Source: a virus
Reading direction: 5' to 3' (one strand)
Length of the DNA stretch: 64,000 bases
IMG/VR virus record: IMGVR_UViG_3300043448_000837
Span: 32,001-96,000 of that record
The notes below the pieces were generated by a model, which was given only the letters and a program-made list of their open reading frames with translations, was not told where the DNA came from and made no database searches. The translations under genes were made by a program, and so were the position numbers. Shown piece by piece: positions 4,719 through 21,890 of the stretch. Position 1 is the first letter of the stretch; every line of letters starts with the position of its first letter.

Positions 4719-4720
4719 TT

Positions 4721-5095: not shown

Positions 5096-5097
5096 GA

Positions 5098-6256: not shown

Positions 6257-6264
6257 AGTAATTG

Positions 6265-6674: not shown

Positions 6675-9466
6675 TTGATGAGACCTTTCTTGATTGCGTT
6701 GAAACGAGTTGTCAGTTTATCGATGGCCCCAATCTCACTCAGCTCTTTCATCGAGTACTCCAAGCCAGATGGCTCTTTGTCGCCGCCAGGGTTGGAAGGA
6801 GTGACAGTCTTTTCCTTAGGCGACTTACGAATCCGGTTGTCGATTGCAACACTGGAAAAGTAAGCTCGTGACAACGGCAGTTCAGGGATGCCAACCGCAG
6901 AATGAAACAGGGACCAGGTGTACATGTGAGCGATTTGAAACAGAACAGCAAACTGCTCTGCATAACGGTCTGGCGTCATAAACCAGATCTCGTCATGAAT
7001 ACTAAGGATAAACCGTGCCGGAATCTTGTATTCTTCGGTGAGCCAGTGGATGGAGGTAAGGAAGATCGACAGAATTTCAGCGCCGGAGGATTGAATTGTC
7101 CAGTTCACTCGCCCGGTTTTGAAGTCGTCGCCCACGGCAGCCGGACGCATCGCAGTCGAGATCTTGGTACCCAGGCAAGGGAGCTGGGGCACACGAGTTC
7201 GCATTGCGATCTCTTCCATAAAGTTAAAGCAGCCGCTGTCTAAGCCGCCTTCATATAGACCATCTCGTTGCGCTCCTTTCTTGCTCTGTAAGAGCTTGAA
7301 CGCAATGTTTTTTACTTCTTCAGGGGATTTCTCCGGGTATTTGCGACGGATGTATGTCTGCACTGCACGAACACCAGCTCCGTACAGGATAGCGAAACCG
7401 ACGATCTTGGCCGTGTCTCGGTCAATGCCGCAGAGTTTTGCAAGTGCGGAGTGCGGGTCCGTGCCTGCCTCTTTCGAGCCACTCAGGACGTTGTAGCCAA
7501 AGGGTGAACAACCGACGTGGCCGCCTTCCCACTTGTCGCTGTAGATCGAGGCGATCTGCATTTCTTGACCGTCAAAGTCTGCACCAACAATCTTCCAACC
7601 ATCTGGAGCTTTGACTCGCGTTTTGAGTTCAGTGCCGATGCGCCAGTTTTTGGTGGAGCACATCGTAACCATCAACGATTCCACGGTTCTGCGAGTAACT
7701 GTGCCGTGGCAAAGAATCTCCGGCAGAGTGACCAAAGAGTCCTCGCCGTAAGGATTGTTGGCACGCAAGAAGATGCGGTCCATCACACGCTTTCGCACGG
7801 AAGTCCAGTAGGACACGGAGTTGGCAATCTCGAGTGCGCGTTTCGCCTCAGGGAGATCGCTGCTGAGGCGACCAACAGCCATATCTTCGACGAAATCTTT
7901 ACTCAACACCCCGCCAACATTGTCGCCATTGCCTTTCGGGTGTGGGATCTTCGTTAGATTACCGTCTTCGTCATGGTAGCACCACCCGTCATTCTTGGTG
8001 AAGATCATCGGGCTTCCTTCGTACTTGAGCTTCAGCATCAGGTGAGCCAGGTTGGATTTCACGCCGATATGCTGATTCTCGTCCTTGATGAAAGGGCGAA
8101 CCCAGTTTGGAATGTGAGCATACTTGCCTTTCGCAGACTTGACCTTCCAGTCGAGTTGTGAAACCCACGGATCTTTGCGCACCCACTGCTGAGCCTTGAT
8201 GGGATCGTTAAGGTAGAGAACGCGCCAGTCTTCGTAAGTTTTCCACACCAGATCTTTACAGATCTGCGTCATTTCGTCGTTGTATTCTTTGTAAACACGC
8301 TCAACATCCTCAATCCACTCGGACCAGTTATCTACGAGCGGAATGATCGAACCGTTCAGATGATAGTGACCGCAGAGAGCAACCATCGAAGGAGTGCTAT
8401 CCAGGTACTTTGGCCACAGCGCCTGAAAGAGTTCAGCAGTGTAGTAAGCATCCTTCAGGGCGTAATCAAGAGCTTCGGTCAGAACTTGACGAATCTGCGA
8501 GAGGTGAGTCGCATCTACGAAGATGTCACGAACTTTTTTATCCACTGCGCCCAGTTCTTTCACGTCCTCACCAAAATACTTTCGGACGGCTGCCACGTGA
8601 AAGTTGTAGCACTGCACAAGGCTGTTCGTAGCGCCTTTGTCAAGCCACTTCGGAGCATAACGCAACTTGCGCTTCTCCTCTGGCGTCAGACTCTCCGGGT
8701 CTTTTCCTGCGAGAACGTACAGCCAGCGTTGACCACTGGCCAATCCTGACACACCGATGTGAGCGGATAGCGTGTCGAAGTAAAAGTTTTCGGGCGCAGT
8801 CTGATCAAGAGTGTAACCCTCGCGAGCACGAACACGGTCGTAGCTGATGTTGTGGCCCGGAATAAAACGGTTGGTACCAATCGGAATCAGTTCGTGTTGA
8901 TCCCACTGGCTTTCGGGGATGGTTGGATCAATCAGTTCAGAAGCTAGCCAAACATAGGCAGCTTTCGCGCTCAGGGCGGTGCCGATGATCGGAAACGCAC
9001 CGCCGTGAACGTAAGTCTCGGTATCGAACGTGAACGCTTCCTCTTCAGGGAAGTCCACCTTCTCGATGTACCAACCACCGGCAGCGTCATTCTCAACCCA
9101 CTCGTACCGAGTCCAGCCGGATTCAAACCGGAACTCTTCAGGTGGCGGCAGAGGGGGAAGTTTGCACCGGGAGAATTGATCACCGAGCTCTTTGTAGCGG
9201 CCAACTTGATCGCTGGCAATCTTTTCGAAATGATCGCGCAAAAAATCACCCTTCAAGTCTGGAAGCGGCAAAGGGCCATCATACAGACCTGCAGGGTGAT
9301 CTACAGGAACAGAAATATCAAATTCTTTCAGCAGGTTTTCTGCTTTCTGAATGGACAGACGAGACATTTTCTGTGGCTTTTCTGTGCCAAAGATTTTGTC
9401 GTGCAGGTCGTCTGACAGAACGGGGTATCCAAGTTGTGTTTTCTTCACGGACGTTAGGTTTTTCAT
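6671..9466 (-). CDS. Family A DNA polymerase, mitochondrial Pol gamma-like
   Basis: ExoI FDTET, GHNISYDRVR, DTLSAH; GTVTRR; motif A VGADFDGQE; motif B RDTAKIVGFAILYGAG; VNWTIQSSG; motif C SIHDEI. Confidence 0.92.
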   Translation of the reverse strand: MKNLTSVKKTQLGYPVLSDDLHDKIFGTEKPQKMSRLSIQKAENLLKEFDISVPVDHPAGLYDGPLPLPDLKGDFLRDHFEKIASDQVGRYKELGDQFSRCKLPPLPPPEEFRFESGWTRYEWVENDAAGGWYIEKVDFPEEEAFTFDTETYVHGGAFPIIGTALSAKAAYVWLASELIDPTIPESQWDQHELIPIGTNRFIPGHNISYDRVRAREGYTLDQTAPENFYFDTLSAHIGVSGLASGQRWLYVLAGKDPESLTPEEKRKLRYAPKWLDKGATNSLVQCYNFHVAAVRKYFGEDVKELGAVDKKVRDIFVDATHLSQIRQVLTEALDYALKDAYYTAELFQALWPKYLDSTPSMVALCGHYHLNGSIIPLVDNWSEWIEDVERVYKEYNDEMTQICKDLVWKTYEDWRVLYLNDPIKAQQWVRKDPWVSQLDWKVKSAKGKYAHIPNWVRPFIKDENQHIGVKSNLAHLMLKLKYEGSPMIFTKNDGWCYHDEDGNLTKIPHPKGNGDNVGGVLSKDFVEDMAVGRLSSDLPEAKRALEIANSVSYWTSVRKRVMDRIFLRANNPYGEDSLVTLPEILCHGTVTRRTVESLMVTMCSTKNWRIGTELKTRVKAPDGWKIVGADFDGQEMQIASIYSDKWEGGHVGCSPFGYNVLSGSKEAGTDPHSALAKLCGIDRDTAKIVGFAILYGAGVRAVQTYIRRKYPEKSPEEVKNIAFKLLQSKKGAQRDGLYEGGLDSGCFNFMEEIAMRTRVPQLPCLGTKISTAMRPAAVGDDFKTGRVNWTIQSSGAEILSIFLTSIHWLTEEYKIPARFILSIHDEIWFMTPDRYAEQFAVLFQIAHMYTWSLFHSAVGIPELPLSRAYFSSVAIDNRIRKSPKEKTVTPSNPGGDKEPSGLEYSMKELSEIGAIDKLTTRFNAIKKGLIK

Positions 9467-9499: not shown

Positions 9500-9868
9500 T
9501 CAGTACGCGGTCAGGTTGTCGATCGGCGGCGGGGGGATCGATCCGGTTGTTCCGCAAGGAACGATTGCTCTGATGGGCTTCGTAGGTTGGAAACCACCGG
9601 AGTTAGTCCACCAAATGTTAGTTGGCCGCACGGGGAACCATCTGTATCTAGGGGTTCCATTTGCGTCGTAAGAGTAGACGCAGGGTTGACCCGCGAAAGG
9701 GGTTCCGGGGTTGAACTGCAGATTTTCAGTTCGAGTAAAATAGTTCGCACTGTTGTTTGCCCAACCTCTGTATTGAGGAGCCAGGATGTTACCTAGGAGT
9801 TCGGTATCAATGGATCCGGCGTTGTACTCGGTGACGGCTTTTGCCATCTGAACAGCACGGGGATTCAT
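9500..9868 (-). CDS. Hypothetical protein
   Basis: 122-aa ORF preceded by GGGTAAAA motif. Confidence 0.6.
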   Translation of the reverse strand: MNPRAVQMAKAVTEYNAGSIDTELLGNILAPQYRGWANNSANYFTRTENLQFNPGTPFAGQPCVYSYDANGTPRYRWFPVRPTNIWWTNSGGFQPTKPIRAIVPCGTTGSIPPPPIDNLTAY

Positions 9869-9898
9869 ACACTTTCATCACAGTTGAACAATTTTACC

Positions 9899-10156
9899 CT
9901 AGAACACACAGTCCCAGCAGAGCTTACCGGGTTCCTCATCATAAAGCCCAAGATTTCTTGCCTCGTTGATTGAATCGAGAGTTTCCCGATCATTCTTGAG
10001 ACGACGATGCAACCGCAAACGCCAGAGGACGTACTCCCTCGCATTACGTTCGGAGGGATCTTCAAGGTACTTCTGATATTTCGTTTCGACCGTCTGAACG
10101 ATACCGATACCAACTTTTTCAATAAGGTGGTCGACTTTCTGAAGAGCTCTTGCCAT
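9899..10156 (-). CDS. Hypothetical protein
   Basis: Coupled to upstream gene. Confidence 0.6.
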   Translation of the reverse strand: MARALQKVDHLIEKVGIGIVQTVETKYQKYLEDPSERNAREYVLWRLRLHRRLKNDRETLDSINEARNLGLYDEEPGKLCWDCVF

Positions 10157-10962
10157 TAGTTTACGGAGTTGAAGGAGAACATTTTGAGCTCAAAGTTGCG
10201 AACACCGGAGCTTTCGTAAACGATATCTTTGTTCTTCTTGTAAATCTCGTAAGCGTCGAACACCGAAGAGAAGTGAAGCGGGCGGTCAGCGGGGCTGCTT
10301 CGCCAAAGGAGCATTTCCTGGAGGGACAGTGGAACGTCGATATCCCACTGCTCGTCTCGCGAAGAGTACAGGAGGGGAAGGGCGTCATTCCGCCACCAGT
10401 CGCAGATCTGGGGGCTGTATTCATCCCAGGCCAGAGGATCCGTAAGGTGAGTGTCGCAAGTTTCGCGAATCCAGTTCACGTACTGGCGACCACGCTCAAC
10501 AACAAGTTTGGCACTCGCCGGAACTTCTTCCAGGAAGTAAGCTTCCTCGTCACCACGAACGACCCGCTCAATAACCGAGGGGAACAAGAAGGACTCGGAA
10601 ATAAGGCGGAAGTCCTCAGCACCTTCGCTAACCAAACGCAGAACAACCTCAAGGATCGACATAGTGGTTGCAATCTGAAGCTCTTCACCCGAAGCATTAA
10701 CTTTTGGTTTCTCGTTCGACAAACCTTTTCGCAGGAGGCTCAACTCGCGCTCAAGGCGACGAACCTCTCGACCCATTTCTCTCTCGAGTTTGTTCTTGTA
10801 AATCTCCGACTGGGTTACCAGATTGTCGAATTTGTTGTCGAGTTTCTCCAGCTCGACGTCCAGCTGCTCCACGGATATCTTCAAGTTGGATAATTTTTTC
10901 TTGAGAGAAGTTACCGAAGAGCGTATTGAGTTGGTTGCAAAAATTAGGTTGTCAGCAGTCAT
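10156..10962 (-). CDS. Hypothetical protein with N-terminal coiled coil
   Basis: Heptad-rich N-terminus; coupled genes. Confidence 0.7.
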   Translation of the reverse strand: MTADNLIFATNSIRSSVTSLKKKLSNLKISVEQLDVELEKLDNKFDNLVTQSEIYKNKLEREMGREVRRLERELSLLRKGLSNEKPKVNASGEELQIATTMSILEVVLRLVSEGAEDFRLISESFLFPSVIERVVRGDEEAYFLEEVPASAKLVVERGRQYVNWIRETCDTHLTDPLAWDEYSPQICDWWRNDALPLLYSSRDEQWDIDVPLSLQEMLLWRSSPADRPLHFSSVFDAYEIYKKNKDIVYESSGVRNFELKMFSFNSVN

Positions 10963-11516
10963 CAGATTGGGCGAATCGTTGCTCTTAGTTGGTCAGTGTT
11001 GACGTCGATGACCTCAACGTTAAACGAGTATAGGCTCTCAGGGTCGCTAAGTAAGTGAAAACTCCCCTCAAAGCGGTCACCATCCCGAGAACGCAAGTAA
11101 AAGTTACCAGGCGTGGGTGGCGAGCAGAGTGCAATGTCGCCTGCGAATTCAGGGTTGGACTCTTCAATCGCCGTGACAAGCCTCTGGTAGATTGCAGAAG
11201 CCGCTGCCATCTCACTGTCGTTTGAAAACTGCGCTCTGAGTTCGCCTTCAATCGCTTCCAGACTTGCCGCGATCCCCGTGTCAAGAACAATCTCGAAAGT
11301 TTCGCCTTCGCCCCGAGTCAGGAAACAAACTTCCTCCGAGTCAAAGTTGCATTCTTCCGGGTTATCAAATGCTTGGAAGCCATGCTCCAGAAGCTCGTAA
11401 AAGGTCTCTTTGATTGTTTCAGCGTCAGGGCCACCCAAGTAGTTGGCGATGGCGTGAAAAATACGAGGGTTGGCGAGCAAACGCGCCACCGGGTAAATCA
11501 GCTGTTGTTCGTCCAT
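10962..11516 (-). CDS. Hypothetical acidic protein
   Basis: 184-aa ORF in operon. Confidence 0.7.
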   Translation of the reverse strand: MDEQQLIYPVARLLANPRIFHAIANYLGGPDAETIKETFYELLEHGFQAFDNPEECNFDSEEVCFLTRGEGETFEIVLDTGIAASLEAIEGELRAQFSNDSEMAAASAIYQRLVTAIEESNPEFAGDIALCSPPTPGNFYLRSRDGDRFEGSFHLLSDPESLYSFNVEVIDVNTDQLRATIRPI

Positions 11517-11587
11517 TACAGTGCTCCGCCGAAGCAGTATAACGATCTCGTCGTTTGGTAATCGTTTAACATGGTTTTACCCGGCGC

Positions 11588-13582
11588 TCACAGTTGAACT
11601 TCTTCAAGGTTGGCCACCTTGATTCCTTTCGCCCCAGGGCGACCTTGCTTCACAGTGCTGAGGCTAAGCTCCACCTTCCTCTTGCGTATCGAAACCCAAG
11701 GAACAGAGTAAGAGCCTTCACCAAGGTACACAAACTCAGCCTCGGCGGGTAGCCAGAGTTTGCCTTTGCTGGTTGCTTTGCAGAGGTCTTCGCCACTCAG
11801 CACCAAAGCCTTGAGTTGACCCTCGAGTTTGAAGACACACAGGTACTTCCGCTGAGAAACTTCGGCTTCGCGTTTCGCGAGAGCCACAGGGCCATAGCCC
11901 GTGGAGATTGGACCTTTGAAAGTTGCCCCAACCTTCTTCAAGAAGCCATCCTGGGTCATTAAAACCACTTTTTCCTTCGCGTCGACGACCATAGCACCCC
12001 TTGGCCCCTTGGCCTGTTCAACCATGCCTTTTTTCAAATCAATCTTGAGAAACCGGGGCTTGGGCGGGGCTGGGGGCCTCTTCTCCCCGGTCCTCGGGCT
12101 GACGGCCAGGCTTCCGGCCGGAGGCTCCACCAGGGCGCTCCTGCGGGCCTCTCCGTGGCGTTTGGCGAGCTCAGTGATCTGTGTGTACACCCACTTATGG
12201 CGCACCTCTTTGTTCTTTACCAGCTCGTCTAGAGTTTTCAGGCGTTCCTCAAGGGTTTCCTTCTCGGCTTCCAGTTCAGCCTGGTCAAGACCAGTAAGTT
12301 GACGAAGGCGCATTTCAAGGATTGCTTCGGCTTGGTCTCGTGTGAACTTGAATGGGCGGTCTACAAGGGCAACGAGTGCCTCTTTCTTTGAGGCTGACTC
12401 CTTAATCTTCTTGATGATTGCGTCAATCTTGTCGATGGCCTTGATGAAGCCCATCACGATCTCAAGGCGCTGCTCGGTGAGGTCTAGCTCCTGGGAGAAC
12501 TTTCGCTCCAGGCGAGCCATTCGCCACGAGAACCATTTCTGACAAATTTCAACTGGGCTGAGCTCAACGGGTCGCGTACCGTCAATAACCAGCGTTTTTG
12601 CTGAATAGCGAGTGTCGAGATCGGTGTATGCGTAGAGTTGCTCAACCAGCTGCTCAGTTCCGACATTGGGCTTCGCAACAATCGTGACACGATCTCCGGA
12701 GAGATCAGATTCGTCGATAACTTCTGCGATTCCATCGAGTTTTCCTTTCTCTAGAGCGTCACGAACTTGTTCACCGAGTTTCTCAGGGTTGACCCCAGGC
12801 GGGAAATTCGTGAATGTAAGTGTGCCACGATCTTTTGCCTTGCCACTTCGTTTCTGTACGCCTGACTCGTACTTAGCGCGGCAGCGAATGTTGCCAGAGC
12901 CTGTTTCCTTGTACCTCTTGAGTTCTTCGTCATTAACAATGTCGCAGCCAGTTGGAAAGTCAGGAATTAGGAGTTCGCGTGCTTTCGCCTCCTTCGGGGC
13001 TTTGAACTCGCACGCAAGTTTGGTGGCCTCTACAACTGCCCGCAGAGAATGGGGTGCCAGCTTCGTTGCGAATCCTACGGCAATACCTGTGTCGCCATTC
13101 AGCAACACCGAAGGGATCGCAGTGTTAAACCGTTCTGCCTCTTGGCGAGATCCGTCGTAGTTCGGCCTCGTCTCCCAGGTGGCTTTGTCCTGCAGAAGCA
13201 GTTCAACAGCGGAGGGTCGAAGTTTACACTCGGTGTAGCGAGCGGCTGCAGGACCGTCAACGGTGCTACCGAAGTTTCCGTGACCGTCAACCCACGGAAC
13301 GTTGTTGTTCCAGGTTGTGGCCATGTTGACCAGAGTGCCGTAGCAATCGCCGTGCGGGTGGTAGTAACCCATCGCAAGGCCAGTTACGCGGGCGCACTTC
13401 ACATAGCGTTTGTCTGGCATCAACCCTTCCTCGAACATCGTCTGAAGGACGCGACGCTGGGCAGGTTTCAAACCGTCATACATGTCTGGGATGGCTCGCC
13501 CAAGTAGGACGGCCATCGAGTAAGCCATGTAATCCTCCTTCATCTGGGAGGTTAGATTGGTCGTTGTTAGGTTTTCTGTCAT
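11588..13582 (-). CDS. gyrA: Type IIA topoisomerase subunit A (GyrA/ParC)
   Basis: RAIPDMYDGLKPAQRR, YHPHGD, GNFGS, AAARYTE catalytic Tyr, PDFPTG, QAEAILEMRL. Confidence 0.93.
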   Translation of the reverse strand: MTENLTTTNLTSQMKEDYMAYSMAVLLGRAIPDMYDGLKPAQRRVLQTMFEEGLMPDKRYVKCARVTGLAMGYYHPHGDCYGTLVNMATTWNNNVPWVDGHGNFGSTVDGPAAARYTECKLRPSAVELLLQDKATWETRPNYDGSRQEAERFNTAIPSVLLNGDTGIAVGFATKLAPHSLRAVVEATKLACEFKAPKEAKARELLIPDFPTGCDIVNDEELKRYKETGSGNIRCRAKYESGVQKRSGKAKDRGTLTFTNFPPGVNPEKLGEQVRDALEKGKLDGIAEVIDESDLSGDRVTIVAKPNVGTEQLVEQLYAYTDLDTRYSAKTLVIDGTRPVELSPVEICQKWFSWRMARLERKFSQELDLTEQRLEIVMGFIKAIDKIDAIIKKIKESASKKEALVALVDRPFKFTRDQAEAILEMRLRQLTGLDQAELEAEKETLEERLKTLDELVKNKEVRHKWVYTQITELAKRHGEARRSALVEPPAGSLAVSPRTGEKRPPAPPKPRFLKIDLKKGMVEQAKGPRGAMVVDAKEKVVLMTQDGFLKKVGATFKGPISTGYGPVALAKREAEVSQRKYLCVFKLEGQLKALVLSGEDLCKATSKGKLWLPAEAEFVYLGEGSYSVPWVSIRKRKVELSLSTVKQGRPGAKGIKVANLEEVQL

Positions 13583-14040
13583 GCTACTTTCTTAACGTAC
13601 TTGGTCCAGCGGCCAAACTTGGGACCCCTCTTGCAGTCTGTGATTGTGATGTACCGTTGGTGCTTGTGCTCCTTGAACGGAATGTGAGCCTCAAAGGTTT
13701 CCCCGGTGCTAGGGCGAGTGAAGATTGCCCTAACGTCCCCTGTGCAGTTAGTCACCTTGATCCGCCAACCGTACGCGGTGTACTGACCGTTGACAGGTCC
13801 GTAAGAGGCTGTGATCTTGCAGTTAGATCCGTCGGCAAGATCCCGGCCAGCTACGCTGTCCAATGGAATTCCGTGGCGAACGGAGGACAAAACCTCGTAC
13901 AACCGGGAAACGTCGAGGCACCCCGTTTTAATCAGATGCTCGAGAAGGTCGGGGCTATCATCCATCAGGGACGAGTACTCTGTGAGCAGCCTCCTGCAAA
14001 GAGGCTCGTGAAGCTCGGCAGCGCGGTCAGTTGTGGCCAT
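13579..14040 (-). CDS. Hypothetical protein, possible PD-(D/E)xK-type nuclease
   Basis: GRDLADGSNCK loosely resembles a D...xxK nuclease motif. Confidence 0.35.
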   Translation of the reverse strand: MATTDRAAELHEPLCRRLLTEYSSLMDDSPDLLEHLIKTGCLDVSRLYEVLSSVRHGIPLDSVAGRDLADGSNCKITASYGPVNGQYTAYGWRIKVTNCTGDVRAIFTRPSTGETFEAHIPFKEHKHQRYITITDCKRGPKFGRWTKYVKKVA

Positions 14041-14305
14041 CGTTTGAAGGAAGGTTTTGAATTCGCTCGATCAAGGTGTCTACAGCGTCCACTGTGCAAA
14101 ACCGAATCACATCGTTGGTGATCTCAGTTTCGTACGTCAGGTGCGCGTGCTTGCCCTCATTATGGCTCAGGACGGCCACTTCGTAAAGCGCATCCTCGCC
14201 GACTTCGTATTCCGGGATAACAGAGATTCCGTAACCGTTGTCAAACAGCTCCCTATGCTGGAACCCAGCGGGATGGGGGAAGAGTTTAAGATCTTCGAGC
14301 TTCAT
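14027..14305 (-). CDS. Hypothetical protein (paralog of 42556..42846)
   Basis: Shared FDNGYGxSV...YEVAV...YxTxITxDV. Confidence 0.7.
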   Translation of the reverse strand: MKLEDLKLFPHPAGFQHRELFDNGYGISVIPEYEVGEDALYEVAVLSHNEGKHAHLTYETEITNDVIRFCTVDAVDTLIERIQNLPSNDGHN

Positions 14306-14511
14306 TCTTCAAACAGCTGTGCGTATTCCTCTTGAGTGGACATGTCCTCGATCTCACCGATTAGTTCCTCGTCGGTGTAACTCCCGATGTAATTCAGTTG
14401 GGTATCGACGAAGAATCGCTCAAGGTCGCGAGTGGTCATTCCGTCAAGATAACGCTCAACAAGCCATTCCACAAGATAGGAACGTTTTTCAGGGGTCAAA
14501 ATAGTCATCAT
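14302..14511 (-). CDS. Hypothetical protein
   Basis: Coupled small ORF. Confidence 0.6.
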   Translation of the reverse strand: MMTILTPEKRSYLVEWLVERYLDGMTTRDLERFFVDTQLNYIGSYTDEELIGEIEDMSTQEEYAQLFEE

Positions 14512-14525
14512 TAGTAGTAGCGGGA

Positions 14526-14723
14526 TCAGGCCAGAACGGTTTCGATAACGTTCTCAGAGATGCCGAAGTATTCGCAGATAGCAACGCGACGATTGGTTTC
14601 AGCGGAAACCTCGAAGGCAATATCGCGAACTTCGTCGAGGTTAATATATTCTTCACCGTCAACAAGGCAACCGTTGTCGCTAAACATCAGAGCGTAGGTA
14701 AGCATGGGGGTCGTTTGATTCAC
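14526..14723 (-). CDS. Hypothetical cassette gene (leaderless GTG start)
   Basis: Start 7 nt after TATAGT of the repeat. Confidence 0.6.
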   Translation of the reverse strand: MNQTTPMLTYALMFSDNGCLVDGEEYINLDEVRDIAFEVSAETNRRVAICEYFGISENVIETVLA

Positions 14724-14730
14724 TGTAATT

Positions 14731-14796
14731 ACTATAGCGCGTTTTGCCCGTTCTGTAAAGGGTGCAAACCGCCCTGGCAGGTACGGTTAACCGCCC
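14731..14796 (-). repeat. Cassette/promoter repeat copy 1
   Basis: GGGCGGTTAACCGTAC..GGGCGGTTTG..TTTACA-N17-TATAGT; abuts TGA at 14797. Confidence 0.9.
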
Positions 14797-15129
14797 TCAG
14801 GCACTCTTGAGAACCAGGCGGTCGGCACTGGAGCCGACGCGAAAGGTGCCATTCCAGAGATAAGCACCCCAGAAGTAGGGGTCCTTGTCGGAAACATTCT
14901 GGAACTCGGCGGTAATCGAGCCGTACTGCTTTTGACGATCAACCTCAAACTCCAAGTCACGCAGGTTGCGAACGCCGAAGAACTCTTTCAGGTCTTGCAG
15001 TTTGCTGAAGTACAGATCGCCGACTTTGAACCCAACGAAACGGTTGGCATCGGTCAAGTCCGCACCTTTGCGAACGTATCCGGCTTTGATGACTTGGCCA
15101 GCGACAAGGTTGGAAACGGTTTTCTTCAT
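14797..15129 (-). CDS. Hypothetical cassette gene
   Basis: Exactly bounded by two repeat copies. Confidence 0.75.
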   Translation of the reverse strand: MKKTVSNLVAGQVIKAGYVRKGADLTDANRFVGFKVGDLYFSKLQDLKEFFGVRNLRDLEFEVDRQKQYGSITAEFQNVSDKDPYFWGAYLWNGTFRVGSSADRLVLKSA

Positions 15130-15135
15130 GTAATT

Positions 15136-15201
15136 ACTATAGCGCCTTTTGCCCGTTTTCGAAAGGGGGCAAACCGCCCTCCGAGGTACGGGAAACCGTA
15201 C
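15136..15201 (-). repeat. Cassette/promoter repeat copy 2
   Basis: TTTCGA-N17-TATAGT, ATG 6 nt downstream; abuts TAG at 15202. Confidence 0.9.
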
Positions 15202-15450
15202 CTACTCGGATATTGAAGCGGGGCGGCCCCAGCGGGCGAGCCGCAGGATGCCAGCGTCTCCATCGCCTGCACAGTGCTCAGACCAAAAAGCGATGATTTC
15301 CATTTCCGTCGGCCCCTGCGGCTCGGGCTGGGCCAGAGCGGCGTTGGCTTTAGCTACCAGCGCAGTTTCGTACCCTTCGTACAGGCTGGTGTGCCTGTGA
15401 AGTTCTTGGGTTAGCTCAGCGCACAGCGCACGGAAATTGGGTTCAGTCAT
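15202..15450 (-). CDS. Hypothetical protein, FRALC/QPEPQGP family
   Basis: Paralog of 15447..15752. Confidence 0.65.
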   Translation of the reverse strand: MTEPNFRALCAELTQELHRHTSLYEGYETALVAKANAALAQPEPQGPTEMEIIAFWSEHCAGDGDAGILRLARWGRPASISE

Positions 15451-15752
15451 TGTTGTTCTCCAGTAGTGGCGGGGCGGCCCCAGCGGGCGAGAACGGCGCG
15501 GGCAAAGTCCAACTCTTGTCTGAACTCTTCGGCAAGGAAACCATGGTAACAGGATGTTTCCACTCCGTACAAGCTCATTAGCTCTTCATCTGTTGGCATA
15601 GGCCCCTGCGGCTCGGGCTGGGCCAGGGCGGCGTCAACACGAACAGCAAGCGGTGACTGTTTGATGCGCTCGACTGGAATGCCGGAGTCGATGGCATCCA
15701 TCAGCTCTTGGCACAGCGCACGGAAGTCAGTTTTGGTTTCGTTCGTTTTCAT
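15447..15752 (-). CDS. Hypothetical protein, FRALC/QPEPQGP family
   Basis: Shares FRALC, QPEPQGP and ARWGRPA. Confidence 0.65.
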   Translation of the reverse strand: MKTNETKTDFRALCQELMDAIDSGIPVERIKQSPLAVRVDAALAQPEPQGPMPTDEELMSLYGVETSCYHGFLAEEFRQELDFARAVLARWGRPATTGEQQ

Positions 15753-15758
15753 GTTTTA

Positions 15759-15825
15759 ATCATAGCTCATTTTCGCCCCAGCGAAAAGGGGGCAAACCGC
15801 CCTCCGAGGTACGGTTTCCCGTACC
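15759..15825 (-). repeat. Cassette/promoter repeat copy 3
   Basis: -10 TATGAT, ATG 6 nt downstream. Confidence 0.85.
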
Positions 15826-15838
15826 TGCTTGGACTTTA

Positions 15839-16318
15839 CTACGTGAAAAGATATTCTTTCCACTCGGGAACAATGCTGCTGTTCAACGTTAGAAGAAAAC
15901 GACTGAACGGCGCGTGGGGTCTTCTGTTCAAAGGAACTCCCCACTCTTCTGGCGTTCTGTTGTCCTTTACGTTGTTGCAGGTGTAGCAGCACGCTACCAT
16001 GTTCTCCCAAGTATCTCCGCCTCCCCGCGACTGCGGCAAAACGTGGTCAATCGTAAGGTCACGATCAGAACCGCAATACTGACAAGTGAAACCGTCACGT
16101 TTTAGAATGAGGCTACGAGAAGGTTTCTTTGCGTTGATGCGCCGAATCGGAAGCCGCACGTATGTGAGCAAACGAATGACTTGCTCGGACAGAATCTGTG
16201 CTTTTTTCTTCAGCACGAGCACAATGGCACGTCGCCAGGAGCAGACGTTGAGAGGCTCATAGCTGGCGTTAAGTACGAGAATACTTCTGTCGATGGCTAG
16301 AGTAGTAGGCGATGACAT
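15839..16318 (-). CDS. HNH endonuclease (McrA-like)
   Basis: ILVLNASYEPL, RDGFTCQYCG, TIDHVLPQSRGG, CYTCNNVK. Confidence 0.9.
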   Translation of the reverse strand: MSSPTTLAIDRSILVLNASYEPLNVCSWRRAIVLVLKKKAQILSEQVIRLLTYVRLPIRRINAKKPSRSLILKRDGFTCQYCGSDRDLTIDHVLPQSRGGGDTWENMVACCYTCNNVKDNRTPEEWGVPLNRRPHAPFSRFLLTLNSSIVPEWKEYLFT

Positions 16319-16321
16319 AGT

Positions 16322-16795
16322 TTAACAATCCCCGGTGTAGCAGCCGTCGTAAGGGTCGAAGCCTTGCTCAAGATCCAAGTCCCCTTCCTCCTCGTAGCTA
16401 GGATCCGTATCAATTATAACGTGACCCAGGTAAATCATGCCGTTCTCGTAGCTGCACTCGAACTCCTGAAGTTCTGCGGAGAACTCCAGTATGTGACCCA
16501 GGCCCCTTTCTACGACTTCAGAAAAGTCGGGGTCGCGAATATCGTCGACGCGAATCGCACCAATGGTGCCGGAATCCACCGAGTACTCATTTCCATACGA
16601 ATCCTCGTAGACACCGTCGCCGTAGGCGGTGCCAAACATGAAGAACTTACGACCGTCGGCCAGAATAAACTCGTGCGAGGAGTTGTCGAAAGGAACTAGG
16701 CTGCATACTTCGTCCCATGCGTCGTGCATCACGTAGCACAGATCGCCAATATAGTAACGGACGGGAAGAGAGTTGCTCATTTCGGTTTCGTTCAT
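16322..16795 (-). CDS. Hypothetical protein
   Basis: YYIGDLCYV...TAYGDG..VDSGTIG; leaderless start. Confidence 0.75.
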   Translation of the reverse strand: MNETEMSNSLPVRYYIGDLCYVMHDAWDEVCSLVPFDNSSHEFILADGRKFFMFGTAYGDGVYEDSYGNEYSVDSGTIGAIRVDDIRDPDFSEVVERGLGHILEFSAELQEFECSYENGMIYLGHVIIDTDPSYEEEGDLDLEQGFDPYDGCYTGDC

Positions 16796-16801
16796 GTAAG
16801 T

Positions 16802-16857
16802 ATTATAGGTCAGCTTGGGAGCCAGCGGTCAGAAAGGTAGGCGGTTTGAGAACCGGC
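16802..16857 (-). repeat. Divergent cassette/promoter repeat copy 4
   Basis: TATAAT with ATG 6 nt downstream; degenerate CGG boxes; abuts TAG at 16858. Confidence 0.55.
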
Positions 16858-17049
16858 CTACTCGGCTTCCTGCCAGGCGTTGATGGCGTCTCGGGCGATC
16901 TCGTCGTCGGTCATCTGGGCAGCGTCATAAGGCTGGTCGAGGATGTAGCGGACCTCGGCCTCAGCCGCGTAGCGGCAGTCCCAGCCGGCACCGTGCTCGG
17001 CCCAGGCGTCGACAATAGCCATGATCAGTTCGAATCGGTTCATTTCCAT
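16858..17049 (-). CDS. Hypothetical cassette gene
   Basis: Start MEMNRF 6 nt after TATGCT. Confidence 0.65.
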   Translation of the reverse strand: MEMNRFELIMAIVDAWAEHGAGWDCRYAAEAEVRYILDQPYDAAQMTDDEIARDAINAWQEAE

Positions 17050-17055
17050 GCTATA

Positions 17056-17121
17056 AGCATAGCTCATTTTGCCAGTTCTGCAAAGGGGGTAAACCGTCCT
17101 CCCAGGTACGGTTAACCGCCC
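17056..17121 (-). repeat. Cassette/promoter repeat copy 5
   Basis: Supplies the TAA stop of the kinase gene (..QGG*). Confidence 0.9.
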
Positions 17122-17864
17122 TGCGCCTCAGCGAGTAGGCGAGTCAGCAGGCGGTCTACCTCCGGCCACTGGGCGCTGGGCCGGTACTTGCGCAGGCGGA
17201 CCACGTGCGACATCTCAGCTGCCAGGGCCTGGGTCCACAAGGGTTCCCCCAGCCTTTGGCGAAGGTGGGCGCACAGAGGCGCAGGGTCGCCACCTGGGTG
17301 TGAGTTGAACAACCGGTGGTAATCGCTGTGCACAGACTGAAGTAATTTACCCAAGTCGAGCACGTAAGACTGGAACAAATTTTGCTTGAAGTTAGGGTCG
17401 ATCAGAACGATGCCCCCGTTATTTTCTACAATGATGTTTTCAAGCGTCAGATCTCCGTGTGAGAACGAGGATGGTAGTGGCTCAATTTCGTCGAGGATTT
17501 CGAAAGTTCGACGAACTATATCACTGTCCGCCAGAGCGACGTGCTCTGAGTGAAGACGATCTTTGTAAGAAACCCAGTCTGCATTTCGCGTTGCTGGGAC
17601 CGTTGACCACAGAAGAATCTGGTCTACCAACGTGTCAATCAGGCGAGTCGATTCAATCTGCGTGCCGCAAACTCCTTCGACAAACTCAATATCGTACTCG
17701 GAACTGGACACGCAAATGGTTTGAGGAAGTCGAATCCCTGGTGTCAAAGTGTACCGCGAGGCAGTACGAAACCAGTCGCACTGCTCAGCGGCATCCTTAC
17801 ACTTCTTTCGTATGAAATCCCCGGAGAAATCCAGGGTCGCACCACTACTTCCCTTCACGAACAA
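17112..17864 (-). CDS. APH/choline-kinase-family phosphotransferase
   Basis: HGDLTLENI, LIDPN, DLGKLLQS. Confidence 0.85.
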   Translation of the reverse strand: MFVKGSSGATLDFSGDFIRKKCKDAAEQCDWFRTASRYTLTPGIRLPQTICVSSSEYDIEFVEGVCGTQIESTRLIDTLVDQILLWSTVPATRNADWVSYKDRLHSEHVALADSDIVRRTFEILDEIEPLPSSFSHGDLTLENIIVENNGGIVLIDPNFKQNLFQSYVLDLGKLLQSVHSDYHRLFNSHPGGDPAPLCAHLRQRLGEPLWTQALAAEMSHVVRLRKYRPSAQWPEVDRLLTRLLAEAQGG

Positions 17865-18558
17865 GCTCCCGAATCCGAGCGCAATCGGCCTCGTAAGTTA
17901 GATCGCCCCAAGTTACACCCAGGGAAGAAAGCGAGATTGCCTCCCGAGTCTTGGCCATGTTGATCATATCGGTGATTTCAACCTCGCCACGATCACTCTT
18001 ACGCAGCTCACCAATCGTGTTCAAGTAACCAGCTGGAAAACGCGCGAAGCCGCAGAAGTAACGACCTTCCAGTTGGCCATGAGGTTTTTCAACTACGTAA
18101 TCTTCAATCACGGTAGCCAGCTGCAGGTTTCGCGGACTCAGTGATTTGTGCAGGAAGGTGAAATAAACTGAATTGTCAAGATCTGAACTCAGCAGAACTC
18201 GTTCTGCAATTGGCATTACCCCTTGATAGTAGTTGTCCCCAAACAATACGGTAAACGGTCCGTCAATCACACCGGCCCACGTTGTAATGGCAGCGCCAGG
18301 ACCATAGGTGTCTTCACTCTGGAAGCGCACGATCGGATCACAAATCTTTGATACTTCGTCAAGAACCGGGTGGTAGATCCGTGTCCCGTCCGTTTTCACT
18401 GCCGACCTTGAAAGTGTCAGGTAAATGTTCTCGGCTCCGTTATCCAGAGCGAACAGTGCCGCCAAGTAGGGAAGCGACATGCCATCAAACTTCTCCTCAA
18501 GTTTATTTCGGCCGAACCGAGTGCTACGACCGGCAGCAAGAATGAGTGCGTTCTTCAT
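17845..18558 (-). CDS. Sugar-phosphate nucleotidyltransferase (RmlA-like)
   Basis: ALILAAGRSTRF..K, FGDN, VEKP, SDRGEVEITD. Confidence 0.88.
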   Translation of the reverse strand: MKNALILAAGRSTRFGRNKLEEKFDGMSLPYLAALFALDNGAENIYLTLSRSAVKTDGTRIYHPVLDEVSKICDPIVRFQSEDTYGPGAAITTWAGVIDGPFTVLFGDNYYQGVMPIAERVLLSSDLDNSVYFTFLHKSLSPRNLQLATVIEDYVVEKPHGQLEGRYFCGFARFPAGYLNTIGELRKSDRGEVEITDMINMAKTREAISLSSLGVTWGDLTYEADCARIRELVREGK

Positions 18559-18911
18559 TGTGCGATTTCTTTGTATTTTGCGGAGAACTGAGCGGGTGTC
18601 ACCGCTTTGTCGTCAACGTAGTACGCCGCCCACGGTTTTCCAATCTGAATGGAATCGTAAGGCACATCGTATTTAGTGCAGAATTTTTCGATTTCCTCGA
18701 TAACTTCTTGCCTCACACTTTCGATATTTCCGTTTGAGCGCCCCATTCCACGAGCCGTATGAAGAATAATCGTCCACCCTGCCTCCTTCATTGCTCGCAT
18801 ACCCGTGATAACTTCCATCTTTGGGCGCGAGTTCTCGTAGTCCCTGTTTACCGTGATAAGGATTGTGTCGTCAACGTCGAAGACAATGGTTTTCTTTGGG
18901 TCGGGAATCAT
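18555..18911 (-). CDS. HAD phosphatase (capsule-biosynthesis type)
   Basis: FDVDDTI, HTARG, GKP, YVDDKA. Confidence 0.88.
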   Translation of the reverse strand: MIPDPKKTIVFDVDDTILITVNRDYENSRPKMEVITGMRAMKEAGWTIILHTARGMGRSNGNIESVRQEVIEEIEKFCTKYDVPYDSIQIGKPWAAYYVDDKAVTPAQFSAKYKEIAQ

Positions 18912-18932
18912 AGAGAGTCAGGAGCTGATCTA

Positions 18933-18976
18933 AACATAGGTCGCGAGAGCTGCAAGTAAAGGGCGGAAACCCGCCC
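18933..18976 (-). repeat. Partial cassette/promoter repeat copy 6
   Basis: GGGCGGGTTTCCGCCC then TTTACT and TATGTT. Confidence 0.5.
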
Positions 18977-18982
18977 AGTTTC

Positions 18983-19807
18983 TCACACAGGAATGACTTC
19001 TGTCGTCAGAGTTTTTAGGCGAATCTCAGCGTATCGAGAAAGCCACTCGTCCTTCGTCCGTCTGGTCTTAGGTGTTGCCAGCTCAGAGAACTCAGCGCAG
19101 ATTCGCTCAACCGTCTCGTTGTTGGTTTGAAGTTTCCGTTCCAGGTCTTCGCAAGTGCCACCACCACCGGTGTGTTGCTTTGCCTTGACGCAAACGTTGT
19201 CGAACCGTAGGGTTCCCTTTCCGTGCACAGTGTGGTACAGCGACAGGAAGTAATCGTCTTTCATGCTGTACTCCGTGATTCGATCAAACGCTGGGTCGCC
19301 AGCGTAGAAACCGAAGGCGTGGCCCATAATGAACTTAAGACCCACGGTGATCTTAGGGTGGAGGAAGCCTTTGTTACGCACTGCGTAGAAACCCCAGAGG
19401 CCGACATCTCGTCGCCCGCTCATTCGAAACCCTCGCTCAATCAGCTCGGACATATTTTCCACCGAGTTTAGGCGGCTCGGGTGGTCCAGCGGCTTTTGCG
19501 TCCCGGTCAGCGGGGCAAGCAGTTCGAGTTCCTCAACGGCGCTAACATCGTCGTCAAATGAAAAAACAGCTGTTCCCTTGTCGTAATAGTTGGAAATGAA
19601 GCGACGTTGATTCGTCAATCCTTTCTCACCAACAACAATCTTGTACTGCGGGTTTGAACTTTGATATTTTTCCAACTCCTGGTCGTTGGCCACGAACAAA
19701 GTCACTCGGGACAGATCGACGTCGGTTTTTTCAAGATAATTCAGAGTCAGTTTTCGGACGCCGTCTGGGCGCCCGTAAGTTGGTATGGCAATCTGGTAAT
19801 CAAGCAT
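18983..19807 (-). CDS. GT-A glycosyltransferase (TET-associated/GREB1-like)
   Basis: Start MLDYQIAIPTYGRP; FDDDV; KDDYFLSL; GGG; overlaps the dioxygenase stop. Confidence 0.8.
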   Translation of the reverse strand: MLDYQIAIPTYGRPDGVRKLTLNYLEKTDVDLSRVTLFVANDQELEKYQSSNPQYKIVVGEKGLTNQRRFISNYYDKGTAVFSFDDDVSAVEELELLAPLTGTQKPLDHPSRLNSVENMSELIERGFRMSGRRDVGLWGFYAVRNKGFLHPKITVGLKFIMGHAFGFYAGDPAFDRITEYSMKDDYFLSLYHTVHGKGTLRFDNVCVKAKQHTGGGGTCEDLERKLQTNNETVERICAEFSELATPKTRRTKDEWLSRYAEIRLKTLTTEVIPV

Positions 19808-21164
19808 TGGGAGTAACGTCGGGTTGTCCTTTGATGTTGGTGTTGGAGCAGCGCTCCATCTTTTGAAGCTTCTTGTACTCATCCCACTCAGGGCTGCACC
19901 ACATTCCGGGGAAGGAACCGTTCCACTTCGGCTCACCTGTTCCTCGCTCAGGGTGGTTGGTTGTAACCCATTCCATGAAGGATCGTCGGCAAGCTTCACA
20001 TTCCAGGTCATCCAGGGTAACGATTGCGTCCCGTGAGTAAAACACAAGAACAAGGTTCTCAGCATCCTCGCTCAGTGGAACGAATGGAGTTTGACCGTGA
20101 ACAAAGCCCTGGTTGTCTCCAATCAGAATGTCACCGTGGCGCATGTGGAAACCAAGGCCAAGTTGAGGCATCACAAAGTCAACGCCATCGTAGGAACCCC
20201 GGTCCATACAAACGAGAGCGGCCACAGCGTCCTTTGCGTTCTGACCGTCGTAATGCCAGCAGGTGGAAAAGTTGTAGTTACAGGTGATTGAGGAGAAGAC
20301 CGTGTCAAACAGGCTGTAACGGGTATCTGCGATATCCTTGTACCTATTTCGCAGGATCCCCCACTCCCTCGGAAAGAGGTCTTTTGTCAGAGAATCAACT
20401 TCCTTGTAGAAAGGTGCGAAAGAAGCGAAGTCGTCGTACCGCTCCATCGTCGGGGCAGTCAACCGGGCAAAGGGTGTTCTCCCTGAGCGAGTGATTGTGC
20501 CTAGAACGGCTGAGAAAACTTTCTGCCCCCGAGGTTGCTTCGTTACGTAACGTGCTTTCCCTGCGATCGCAGCCGCTTTCCGGTCCCCAGAGGGAGCCCA
20601 CTCTCGAACCAACCAATTGTCGAACCACGCCAGTTTGGCAGCATTTCTGTTCAAGATGGCCGTCTGTTTCAGGTCAAACGGCGTGCTCTTTTTTCGGACG
20701 AGGCTGTCCCACTTTTCAATCTCGTCGAGATCCACTAAACCATCCGTTTCGACTTTTCCTACAAAGTAGGTTGTTCTAGAAACGCGAGTATCAGCGGCGA
20801 CGATTGCTCTGGCTTCTTCCAAGTCGGCCACAAGGCCCTTCACAGCCTTACTGAAGAACACTTTCTGACCTTCGGTTAGCCGGATTTCCACGTTCGTGGT
20901 GATTTCCGAACCAGCGGCGTTCCCGCGTTGATCTGACAGAAGGGACTTACAGGCCCAGCGCCAGTACTCAAATTCTTTGCTGTTGGGTCGGATATTGGCT
21001 GCTGCTTTCAGACCTTTTTTGCGAAAAGCGACGGCAAGTGAACCATCGGGGCGGTACACGTTGCAATCTTCATCGATAAGTTCAAGGAAATCCGTCGATG
21101 AAGGCACTCCACCAAGTCGTTTGTCGTCAAACGGAACTAGCGCGTCTAAGTAAATTTCTCTCAT
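19800..21164 (-). CDS. TET/JBP-family 2OG-Fe(II) dioxygenase
   Basis: FSSITCNYNFSTCWHYDGQN (HxD), GDILIGDN..VHGQT (distal His), LVFYSR. Confidence 0.8.
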   Translation of the reverse strand: MREIYLDALVPFDDKRLGGVPSSTDFLELIDEDCNVYRPDGSLAVAFRKKGLKAAANIRPNSKEFEYWRWACKSLLSDQRGNAAGSEITTNVEIRLTEGQKVFFSKAVKGLVADLEEARAIVAADTRVSRTTYFVGKVETDGLVDLDEIEKWDSLVRKKSTPFDLKQTAILNRNAAKLAWFDNWLVREWAPSGDRKAAAIAGKARYVTKQPRGQKVFSAVLGTITRSGRTPFARLTAPTMERYDDFASFAPFYKEVDSLTKDLFPREWGILRNRYKDIADTRYSLFDTVFSSITCNYNFSTCWHYDGQNAKDAVAALVCMDRGSYDGVDFVMPQLGLGFHMRHGDILIGDNQGFVHGQTPFVPLSEDAENLVLVFYSRDAIVTLDDLECEACRRSFMEWVTTNHPERGTGEPKWNGSFPGMWCSPEWDEYKKLQKMERCSNTNIKGQPDVTPNA

Positions 21165-21201
21165 GATGTTTAAGGAGTAACCTCACAGTTTTACCCACCT
21201 C

Positions 21202-21253
21202 ATTATAACGGTTCGGGTCAGCGGTAAGCAAAATAAAAGGCGGTTTCCCGCCC
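21202..21253 (-). repeat. Partial repeat copy 7 / promoter of the modification operon
   Basis: GGGCGGGAAACCGCC ... TATAAT, followed by GGGTAAAA. Confidence 0.5.
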
Positions 21254-21275
21254 ATCCGACCAACAAGTTAAGGTC

Positions 21276-21890
21276 TTACTGCGTGTATTCGCAGAGGATA
21301 TCGGACTCTTGGTCAAAGGCGCAGTTGAGCAATTTTCGCATTTGGCGGGCGACATCAAGGTCTTTACCGAGGTAAAGAGTCGTTTTCAGAAGGTCGCTGT
21401 ACACAACCGGTTGCTCTTTGGTGATTTCCTCGTCATAGAAGTTGACTCGGTAAGCAACGCCATTTGATTCGCAAAGTTCGTTTATTCGCTTTGCGTGCAG
21501 AATGAAATTCTCTCCGTGACCCTTGATTCCATCATCAAGATTCTTCATGTCGAGATAAGCGTGAAGCATCTCGTGAAGCAAGGTGCTGCGAACTTCCAGG
21601 GGATCTTTCGCAGCGTGGCGGGCGAGTTTGATTTCCCCAGTTCCTCCGTTATTTGGCTTGTAAGTCCCCCACTTAGTTCTGTAACGACCTTCCCACTTGA
21701 GACGCGGATACGAGTTCCAGGTCTCTCCGTTTTCGTCGGTGCGAGAGACAACCTTGGGGACCGGGAGTTCTCCGTTGAAATACTTCGCATTGAACTCGGC
21801 GTACAACTCGCCAAGGTCATAAATCGCGCAAGGGTTGGGGCAGAACCGTTCAAGAAACGAGTTTGAAACTACCGTTTTGAATTCCGTCAT
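21276..21890 (-). CDS. SprT-like zinc metalloprotease
   Basis: FNAKYFNGELP, TLLHEMLH, HGENF. Confidence 0.85.
   Translation of the reverse strand: MTEFKTVVSNSFLERFCPNPCAIYDLGELYAEFNAKYFNGELPVPKVVSRTDENGETWNSYPRLKWEGRYRTKWGTYKPNNGGTGEIKLARHAAKDPLEVRSTLLHEMLHAYLDMKNLDDGIKGHGENFILHAKRINELCESNGVAYRVNFYDEEITKEQPVVYSDLLKTTLYLGKDLDVARQMRKLLNCAFDQESDILCEYTQ

Follow-up and report, generated by a model that had tools for sequence, protein, structure and literature searches.

A candidate two-module cassette for thymine hypermodification in a lake cyanophage, joining a long-form TET/JBP dioxygenase and a glycosyltransferase to a split sugar-activation pathway

Which base is decorated, and with what, when a TET/JBP-family dioxygenase gene stands beside a glycosyltransferase gene and three genes for sugar activation? 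The question is raised by a 64,000-nucleotide stretch of viral DNA (positions 32,001 to 96,000 of IMG/VR record IMGVR_UViG_3300043448_000837), here called the window, which is part of a 114-kb virus record that CheckV rates as about 51% complete. Five tightly packed open reading frames (ORFs) lie on its minus strand at 17112-21164, where a first-pass annotation had placed them. The identities it gave them, namely a dioxygenase, a glycosyltransferase (GT), a HAD phosphatase, a nucleotidyltransferase (NT) and an APH-like kinase, were all borne out by Pfam, PHROG and NCBIfam matches, motifs and folds. The genes probably form a phage-encoded, two-module cassette for post-replicative DNA hypermodification, in which thymine is oxidised and then glycosylated with a sugar activated by the phage itself. 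By its sequence the source appears to be an uncultured lake cyanophage, a relative of the cyanomyovirus S-CBWM1; its gamma-type DNA polymerase shares 57% identity with the polymerase of this Synechococcus phage.

The first gene (19800-21164, minus strand) encodes a 454-aa protein assigned to the TET/JBP-family 5-methylpyrimidine dioxygenases (5mYOX) on its Pfam Tet_JBP match, its HxD...H triad and its AlphaFold2 (AF2) fold. The match to Tet_JBP (PF12851) has an E-value of 7e-14 and a score of 51.8 bits against a cut-off of 34.9, and in the genome search the score is 54.5 bits. Full-length homologues from environmental sequences number more than 120. The iron triad H304-x-D306...H356 is invariant across 20 homologues and aligns to TET2 H1382, D1384 and H1881. 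An AF2 model built from 20 homologues (pLDDT 91.5) finds TET2 as its best structural match (Z 20.2, 254 residues aligned, root-mean-square deviation 3.1), with CMD1 (Z 19.1), NgTET1 (Z 18.4) and CcTet as further matches and AlkB/FTO lower, at Z 12-14. A prolyl-hydroxylase-type oxygenase was rejected, since TETs head the structural matches and no prolyl hydroxylase stands on top; both profile and structure thus group the oxygenase with the TETs. The protein is of a long form, in which the double-stranded beta-helix core (residues 1 to about 380) carries a large helical insertion and is followed by a conserved, Cys-containing C-terminal extension.

The second gene (18983-19807, minus strand) encodes a TET-associated GT-A glycosyltransferase (TAGT/JGT-like) of 274 aa, identified from Pfam TAGT, phrog_842, phrog_25200 and motifs. 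Its true start is the ATG at 19807, not at 20065, and overlaps the TET stop by 8 nucleotides. Comparison with the profile of TET-associated GTs places the protein in the TAGT family (PF20691, E-value 4e-9, 37.1 bits against a cut-off of 27.5). It also matches phrog_842, the T-even PHROG of beta-glucosyl-HMC-alpha-glucosyltransferase (HMC, hydroxymethylcytosine), at 2.9e-10, and phrog_25200; a phmmer search against PDB sequences gave no match. The translation contains QRRF, FDDDV and KDDYF, an R...DDD...DDYF pattern, and the motif set R...DDD...(E/D)DY/F defines the JGT-like phage DNA glycosyltransferases (Pyle 2023, bioRxiv 2023.12.21.572611). The GT is predicted to move a sugar onto the hydroxymethyl group of an oxidised base in DNA.

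The remaining three genes look like a pathway for an activated sugar. The third (18555-18911, minus strand) encodes a small, cap-less, AfhF-like HAD phosphatase of 118 aa, recognised by TIGR01689, PDB entry 1xpj and the HAD motifs. It matches TIGR01689, 'capsule biosynthesis phosphatase', at 3.6e-26, under the cut-off of that profile, and also HAD-IIIA; the best PDB match is 1xpj (6e-20), and all four HAD motifs (DxDxT, T, K and DD) are present. Such an enzyme is predicted, by analogy, to strip the distal phosphate from a sugar 1,n-bisphosphate. The fourth gene (17845-18558, minus strand), whose start overlaps the HAD stop by 4 nucleotides, encodes a 237-aa sugar-1-phosphate NT of RmlA/GlmU/MurU-type fold. 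This assignment draws on NTP_transf_3 (1.9e-5, just below cut-off) and on weak NCBIfam matches to RmlA/GlmU-type sugar-1-phosphate NTs; the neighbours in the ESM Atlas are NTP_transferase clusters. It is predicted to form a nucleoside-diphosphate (NDP) sugar. The fifth gene (17112-17858, minus strand, GTG start) encodes a 248-aa small-molecule kinase of APH/choline-kinase fold, assigned from Pfam APH (4e-5, at the cut-off), motifs and AF2 fold. The motifs HGDxxxxN (here HGDLTLEN) and IDPN are invariant in its homologues, and the AF2 model (pLDDT 93) matches FN3K (fructosamine-3-kinase), APH, choline kinase and maltokinase; phmmer against PDB sequences returned no match. By analogy it is predicted to phosphorylate a sugar phosphate at the anomeric carbon (C1). 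The pfkB-type 'carbohydrate kinase' of the T4-like cyanophage S-CAM1 was considered as a relative and proved unrelated. A phosphocholine pathway of the LicA/LicC type was ruled out, as the transferase is a GT-A TAGT, not of LicD type.

The ratio of nonsynonymous to synonymous divergence (dN/dS) against relatives is 0.06-0.12 for the cassette genes wherever dS is not saturated, and the ORFs are therefore real genes. Against locus L003 (L numbers denote viral loci), dS is 0.30 for the NT and saturated for the TET, and this unequal divergence inside the cassette agrees with recombination between modules. PADLOC matched none of the cassette proteins, and a megablast search of cultured phages with the cassette gave no match.

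Protein comparison did find the cassette in a cultured, fully sequenced phage. S-CBWM1, whose host is CBW1002, carries the five genes in the same order as gp8-gp12, and the annotations of these genes appear, from their sequences, to be wrong. Its TET is 36% identical and annotated 'SNF2 DNA repair protein'; its GT (gp9) is 62% identical and annotated hypothetical; its HAD is 41% identical, 'capsule biosynthesis phosphatase'; its NT is 49% identical, 'glucose-1-phosphate thymidylyltransferase'; and its kinase is 45% identical and hypothetical. The part of the S-CBWM1 literature consulted makes no mention of DNA modification. The five-gene set is conserved in L002, L003, L004, L012 and S-CBWM1, and partly in L011; these are the sugar-type cassettes among 24 viral loci typed for this TET family, and TET-GT adjacency is kept in all of them. 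It is kept as well in L067 (IMGVR_UViG_3300025137_000002), a complete, unrelated 54-kb phage with terminal repeats, where positions 5693-9450 hold ParB, a 313-aa TET, a TAGT-like GT, a HAD/kinase fusion and a cytidylyltransferase (CTP_transf_like), a ParB-linked parallel of the window cassette.

Other members of the family precede other chemistries. The commonest cassette (8 loci: L005 at 3887-8121, L006-L010, L018 and L021) joins the TET to AADT and a gene like myo-inositol-1-phosphate synthase. In the L005 type, the Inos-1-P_synth Pfam match (9e-23) is followed by 2-3 ORFs without assignment. This combination may indicate an undescribed thymidine hypermodification. Four loci have GATase-AADT-P-loop kinase cassettes, and three (L022 at 9953-18929, L025 and L020) have two tandem TETs, 45% identical to each other, with R2K ATP-grasp, GATase, AADT, GT4 and P-loop kinase; rarer forms also occur among the 24.

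A direct exchange between two of these types was captured at the locus itself. L015 is collinear with the window, and blastn aligns the two flanks at 86-99% nucleotide identity and finds no match inside 17119-21345, a 4.2-kb interval without assigned strand that these flanks define as an exchangeable hypermodification cassette, replaced in L015. In its place L015 has, at 9810-15235, a TET of its own (TET', 42% identical to the window TET), GATase, two unassigned ORFs, AADT, EndoVII and P-loop kinase, and L016 is of the same type. The right-hand breakpoint falls on a repeat unit (17122-17043). Maximum-likelihood analysis groups the sugar-type TETs in one clade, sister to an AADT-type clade and nested among AADT-type TETs; the S-CBWM1 TET is distant, yet joined to the same GT-HAD-NT-kinase module. 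Tree placement and module content together imply that TETs and downstream chemistries have been shuffled, and this is most simply explained if all share the intermediate 5-hydroxymethyluracil (5hmU).

The base on which the dioxygenase acts had been left between thymine and 5-methylcytosine (5mC) in the first-pass annotation. The choice can now be narrowed: the context favours thymine, oxidised to 5hmU. The absence of a C5-methyltransferase from the window, reported earlier, was confirmed with PF00145 and extended to the 114-kb record. PF00145 is likewise missing from complete S-CBWM1 and four cassette-bearing records, and from another 24 records (20 that carry this TET family, 4 a ParB-linked parallel TET cassette), which makes 0/30 records, two of them complete genomes (S-CBWM1 and L067). 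Family members at 38-55% identity precede AADT, GATase and P-loop nucleotide kinase 3, which are thymidine-hypermodification enzymes acting on 5hmU. O'Toole et al. (2026, PMC13229309) assigned T-dioxygenases by such gene associations together with the lack of a C5-methyltransferase, and showed 5hmU production experimentally. If the window enzyme acts on DNA, this genomic context makes thymine quite likely to be the oxidised base, and the dioxygenase is most likely a thymine hydroxylase, as predicted, forming 5hmU. A pre-replicative route, hydroxymethylation of the ThyA type, was ruled out, as the thymidylate-synthase family PF00303 has no match in the record. ParB-like PF02195 also has no match in the 114-kb record, nor in the upstream ORFs of relatives, which gave no Pfam matches when checked for it; a T-dioxygenase here would thus be ParB-independent.

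The same pathway could instead run on 5mC, with the methyl group supplied by the host or by a methyltransferase in the unsequenced half of the genome; the TET would then yield 5-hydroxymethylcytosine (5hmC) for the GT to glycosylate, as in the clade A/B phage TET systems. All chemically shown phage TET + GT products so far are on 5hmC (Burke 2021; Pyle 2023), the record covers only about half of its genome, and cytosine would be compatible with Asn309, the residue aligned with TET2 N1387. Set against this are the 0/30 count, complete S-CBWM1 and complete L067 included, and the observation that phage 5mC-TETs normally adjoin a C5-methyltransferase (O'Toole 2026, PMC13229309; Burke 2021). Moreover, the sister TETs are paired with the thymidine machinery of AADT and P-loop kinase, and the cassettes exchange at one locus. 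A 5mC pathway is therefore judged unlikely.

Whether the three sugar genes belong together, and to DNA at all, was approached through gene fusions. An exhaustive profile search with the kinase gave 1484 representatives, of which the best 145 were used for fusion counts. In 92/145 of these best relatives the N-terminal domain is 33-50% identical to the stand-alone HAD of the window (HAD-kinase fusions), and one (P0180) is an NT-kinase fusion whose N-terminal half is 38% identical to the window NT. The two kinds of fusion indicate that HAD, NT and kinase belong to one pathway. A scan of viral contigs with P0180 returned nothing; more than 329 viral contigs encode HAD-kinase genes. Among 50 HAD-kinase records taken as a sample, a TET is present in 5/50 and a divergent ThyA homologue in 14/50, often adjacent, and 31/50 have neither. 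The closest HAD-kinase fusion loci (L027-L033 and others) have a divergent homologue of thymidylate synthase (45-92 bits) no more than about 1-2 kb away, and this suggests that the same sugar-activation module is coupled there to a pre-replicative modification of pyrimidines.

The HAD also has relatives among phages with a known sugar pathway. Homologues are found in 394 phage records, and the protein is homologous to the AfhF-type phosphatase (tblastn, 30-38% identity, E-values about 1e-9 to 1e-10) of RB69-like phages, HX01 gp142 among them. HX01 gp142 adjoins an arabinose-5-phosphate isomerase and a 561-aa NT-kinase; BLASTP of the window NT against the AfhE-like HX01 gp141 matched at the N-terminal glycine-rich motif alone. 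AfhE, an NT-kinase fusion, phosphorylates arabinose-5-phosphate at C1, AfhF removes the 5-phosphate, and the NT domain forms UDP-arabinofuranose, in RB69, DLP3 and HY126-type phages (NAR 2026, PMC13326640). No SIS/SIS_2 isomerase domain was detected in the 114-kb record, in complete S-CBWM1 or in L002 and L012. The substrate must therefore be a host sugar phosphate used unaltered, and, with no arabinose-5-phosphate isomerase, the pathway is not the arabinose pathway described for AfhE/AfhF.

Two further readings turn on these three genes. The sugar genes and the GT could be a system unrelated to DNA, making an NDP-sugar for a virion protein or a host surface polymer, with the TET as an independent neighbour. 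The 'capsule biosynthesis phosphatase' subfamily of the HAD, distant GT relatives in mycobacteriophage and Arthrobacter phage genomes in contexts of no clear function, and the 31/50 HAD-kinase phages with neither TET nor ThyA homologue are what speak for it. It does not account well for a GT that starts inside the TET gene and matches both TAGT and the T-even HMC glucosyltransferase PHROG, for TET-GT adjacency in all sugar-type loci and in unrelated L067, or for the exchange of the whole unit for a DNA-modifying AADT cassette, and it is considered improbable. In the other reading, the trio would tailor a sugar already on DNA, for example phosphorylating or nucleotidylating a glucosyl-5hmU formed with UDP-glucose of the host, or the kinase would activate 5hmU itself. 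A kinase does act on DNA-borne 5hmU in thymidine hypermodification (O'Toole 2026, PMC13229309; Burke 2021), and the fold matches leave the kinase substrate unspecified. Those DNA kinases are P-loop enzymes, not APH-fold, and the HAD-kinase and NT-kinase fusions and the AfhE/AfhF and contig-53 pathways (the latter described below) all use free sugar phosphates; tailoring of this kind is judged very improbable.

Several observations weigh against the preferred reading, in which thymine is oxidised and then glycosylated from a phage-made donor. The first concerns the catalytic site of the dioxygenase. In a low-scoring alignment, Asn370 (window 20053-20055) aligns with TET2 R1896, which we take to be the canonical Arg for binding 2-oxoglutarate (2OG). 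In low-scoring alignments of this position, S-CBWM1, L022 and L067 have Arg ('ER') and L015 and L005 have Ser; by clade, it is Ser in clades B and C and Arg in type D TETs, ParB-linked TETs and S-CBWM1. With Asn at the canonical Arg position, 2OG binding would be non-canonical or the activity altered. R342 and Y376-x-R378 are conserved among the TET homologues, and R342 and R378 may, on sequence conservation, stand in for the canonical Arg. Several ParB-less clade C/D phage TETs were inactive in E. coli, and TET89 acts on both T and 5mC (Burke 2021); host cytosine methylation could in principle also supply 5mC. For the GT, the TAGT match is limited to profile positions 1-94 of 205, the N-terminal half. 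For the donor genes, the Pfam scores of the NT and kinase lie at or under their cut-offs, and the kinase resembles the kinase half of HX01 gp141 weakly (hhalign probability 75%, E-value 2.4e-5, 155 columns, catalytic motifs aligned). Most HAD-kinase phages lack both a TET and a ThyA homologue, so that the use of the sugar module is not confined to modifying DNA, and the sugar cannot be named because an isomerase is not present.

The proposed mechanism would proceed in two steps on DNA and three on the donor. With Fe(II) and 2OG, the TET would hydroxylate the C5-methyl group of thymine in replicated phage DNA to give 5hmU, and the translationally coupled TAGT-family GT-A would add a sugar to the hydroxyl, giving a base-J-like O-glycosyl-5hmU. 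We infer DNA as the GT acceptor from the TET-GT gene overlap and the conserved adjacency. For the donor, the APH-fold kinase would phosphorylate C1 of a host sugar phosphate, the HAD would take off the distal phosphate, and the NT would turn the resulting sugar-1-phosphate into the NDP-sugar used by the GT. This order, kinase, HAD and then NT, is proposed by analogy. The likely role of the cassette would be to shield phage DNA from host nucleases, that is, anti-restriction. Oxidation of a pyrimidine followed by glycosylation with a phage-made NDP-sugar, the core of what had been proposed earlier, is supported by homology, gene fusions, conserved synteny and published precedents.

The closest precedents are the phage T-dioxygenases of 5mYOX clades C1/C2 (O'Toole 2026, PMC13229309). 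They share the TET/JBP fold, the lack of a neighbouring C5-methyltransferase and post-replicative priming for bulky hypermodification; the GT association resembles C2, and the sister genes with AADT, GATase and P-loop kinase resemble C1. GT, HAD and APH are among the domains reported to co-occur with 5mYOXs (O'Toole 2026, PMC13229309). These enzymes are about 280-320 aa long, whereas the window TET has 454 aa, with a far larger insertion and the Cys-containing C-terminal extension. Unlike the ParB-dependent subclass of T-dioxygenases, it has no ParB nearby or elsewhere in the record, and it has Asn at the 2OG-Arg position.

Contig 53 of Pyle et al. (bioRxiv 2023.12.21.572611) has a comparable gene set, with a dioxygenase, a DNA GT and a HAD, an APH-like kinase and a nucleotidyltransferase. 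In that system the bifunctional HAD-APH enzyme, the cytidylyltransferase and the GT are all needed for heptosyl-5hmC in E. coli. Compared by description, contig 53 has a C5-methyltransferase, a fused HAD-APH, a cytidylyltransferase-type NT and a GT-B, whereas the window has no methyltransferase, split sugar genes, an RmlA/MurU-type (NTP_transferase/MobA-like) NT and a TAGT GT-A; its modified base is probably T, perhaps with another sugar. The HAD-APH fusion is paralleled by the 92/145 kinase relatives. Most 5mYOX-GT contigs in that study lack a methyltransferase (Pyle 2023, bioRxiv 2023.12.21.572611). The AfhE/AfhF system (PMC13326640) is alike in using an APH-fold kinase, a small HAD with best PDB match 1xpj and a MurU-like NT for DNA glycosylation. 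Those phages have a pre-replicative, ThyA-like 5-hydroxy-dCMP synthase, GT-B arabinosyltransferases, an NT-kinase fusion and the isomerase, in contrast to the TET, GT-A and split genes of the window, which lacks an isomerase. Base J of kinetoplastids (JBP1/2 + JGT) is the eukaryotic likeness, in which TET/JBP enzymes hydroxylate T in DNA to 5hmU, which is then glycosylated by a GT-A of the TAGT family. Base J is regulatory, uses host UDP-glucose and covers about 1% of T; the phage version would have its own donor pathway and would probably be defensive.

These comparisons modify two points of the first-pass annotation. To call the modification system novel was an overstatement: clusters of 5mYOX, GT, HAD, APH and nucleotidyltransferase have been catalogued, one of them reconstituted (contig 53, Pyle 2023), and phage T-dioxygenases are published (O'Toole 2026). 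The cassette falls within a class already published, that of phage 5mYOX-GT clusters for hypermodification (Burke 2021; Pyle 2023; O'Toole 2026). The analogy to heptose pathways survives as one option. It is weakened by an NT that is RmlA/MurU-like, not HldE-type as expected for ADP-heptose; the logic is closer to that of AfhE/AfhF arabinose, without the isomerase. What is new is a long-form, ParB-free TET family, a split three-gene donor pathway with an RmlA-type NT, the cassette in a cultured cyanophage and its clean replacement between near-identical phages. The literature cited here on phage 5mYOX systems describes no glycosylated 5hmU that comes from a phage TET pathway and has been characterised by chemistry.

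The cassette is set within a landscape of short repeats. A GC hairpin with a T-run followed by a -10 TATAAT lies at 21200-21253 (minus strand), and this terminator/promoter repeat heads the TET-GT module; a second hairpin/promoter unit lies between GT and HAD (18920-18976, minus strand). Both were recognised from sequence and a terminator-like match. As the unit both precedes the TET and recurs between GT and HAD, it divides the cassette into two transcription modules, [TET-GT] and [HAD-NT-kinase]. Just past the kinase stop, a repeat unit of about 80 bp (17043-17122, minus strand), located from blastn breakpoints and dispersed repeat matches, forms the right-hand breakpoint of the cassette replacement. 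The hairpin/promoter motif has 14 copies in the window against 0.47 expected. Hairpin and promoter-like units of about 80 bp are dispersed over 14700-47500 on the minus strand (for example at 15783, 22488, 27328, 37795 and 46239), separating small gene modules of an accessory region.

Three other genes were also noted. An acidic 69-aa ORF (16858-17067, minus strand), flanked by a promoter repeat on either side, directly follows the kinase gene; it matches no family, and its conservation in L015 and L004, at the DNA level, is partial. Just upstream of the TET, a gene for a SprT-like zinc metalloprotease (21276-21890, minus strand; HEMLH motif, Pfam SprT-like 2e-12) recurs in L002-L004, L011, L015-L017, L020, L022, L023, L025 and L026 regardless of cassette type, and in S-CBWM1 as gp6, annotated 'transcription elongation protein'. 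It behaves as part of the backbone, being 87% identical in L015 against 42% for the TET. A functional link to the TET, such as clearing DNA-protein crosslinks at oxidised bases, may exist. Farther away, at 47935-49431 (minus strand), the phage encodes an OprB-family carbohydrate porin with an SLH domain, an architecture typical of cyanobacterial outer-membrane porins.

Post-replicative thymine hypermodification in phages has been demonstrated only recently, and S-CBWM1, with the same five genes, makes the cassette a concrete, testable case. We tentatively propose, as a specific version that has somewhat less than an even chance of being right, that virion DNA of S-CBWM1-like cyanophages contains an undescribed base, 5hmU O-glycosylated with a phage-activated non-glucose sugar (a pentose, hexose or heptose), made through a long-form, ParB-independent thymine dioxygenase, and that sugar-type and AADT-type cassettes are alleles at one repeat-bounded locus. 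The gene fusions define a sugar-activation module widespread in phages, with its more than 329 viral contigs, and the precise replacement seen here, in which almost identical backbones carry either a sugar or an AADT cassette, shows how phages trade DNA-decoration chemistries. If the proposal is true, the modification would also explain restriction-enzyme resistance in the sequencing and cloning of cyanophage DNA, and thymine decoration would be a trait that phages exchange rapidly in their contest with host nucleases.

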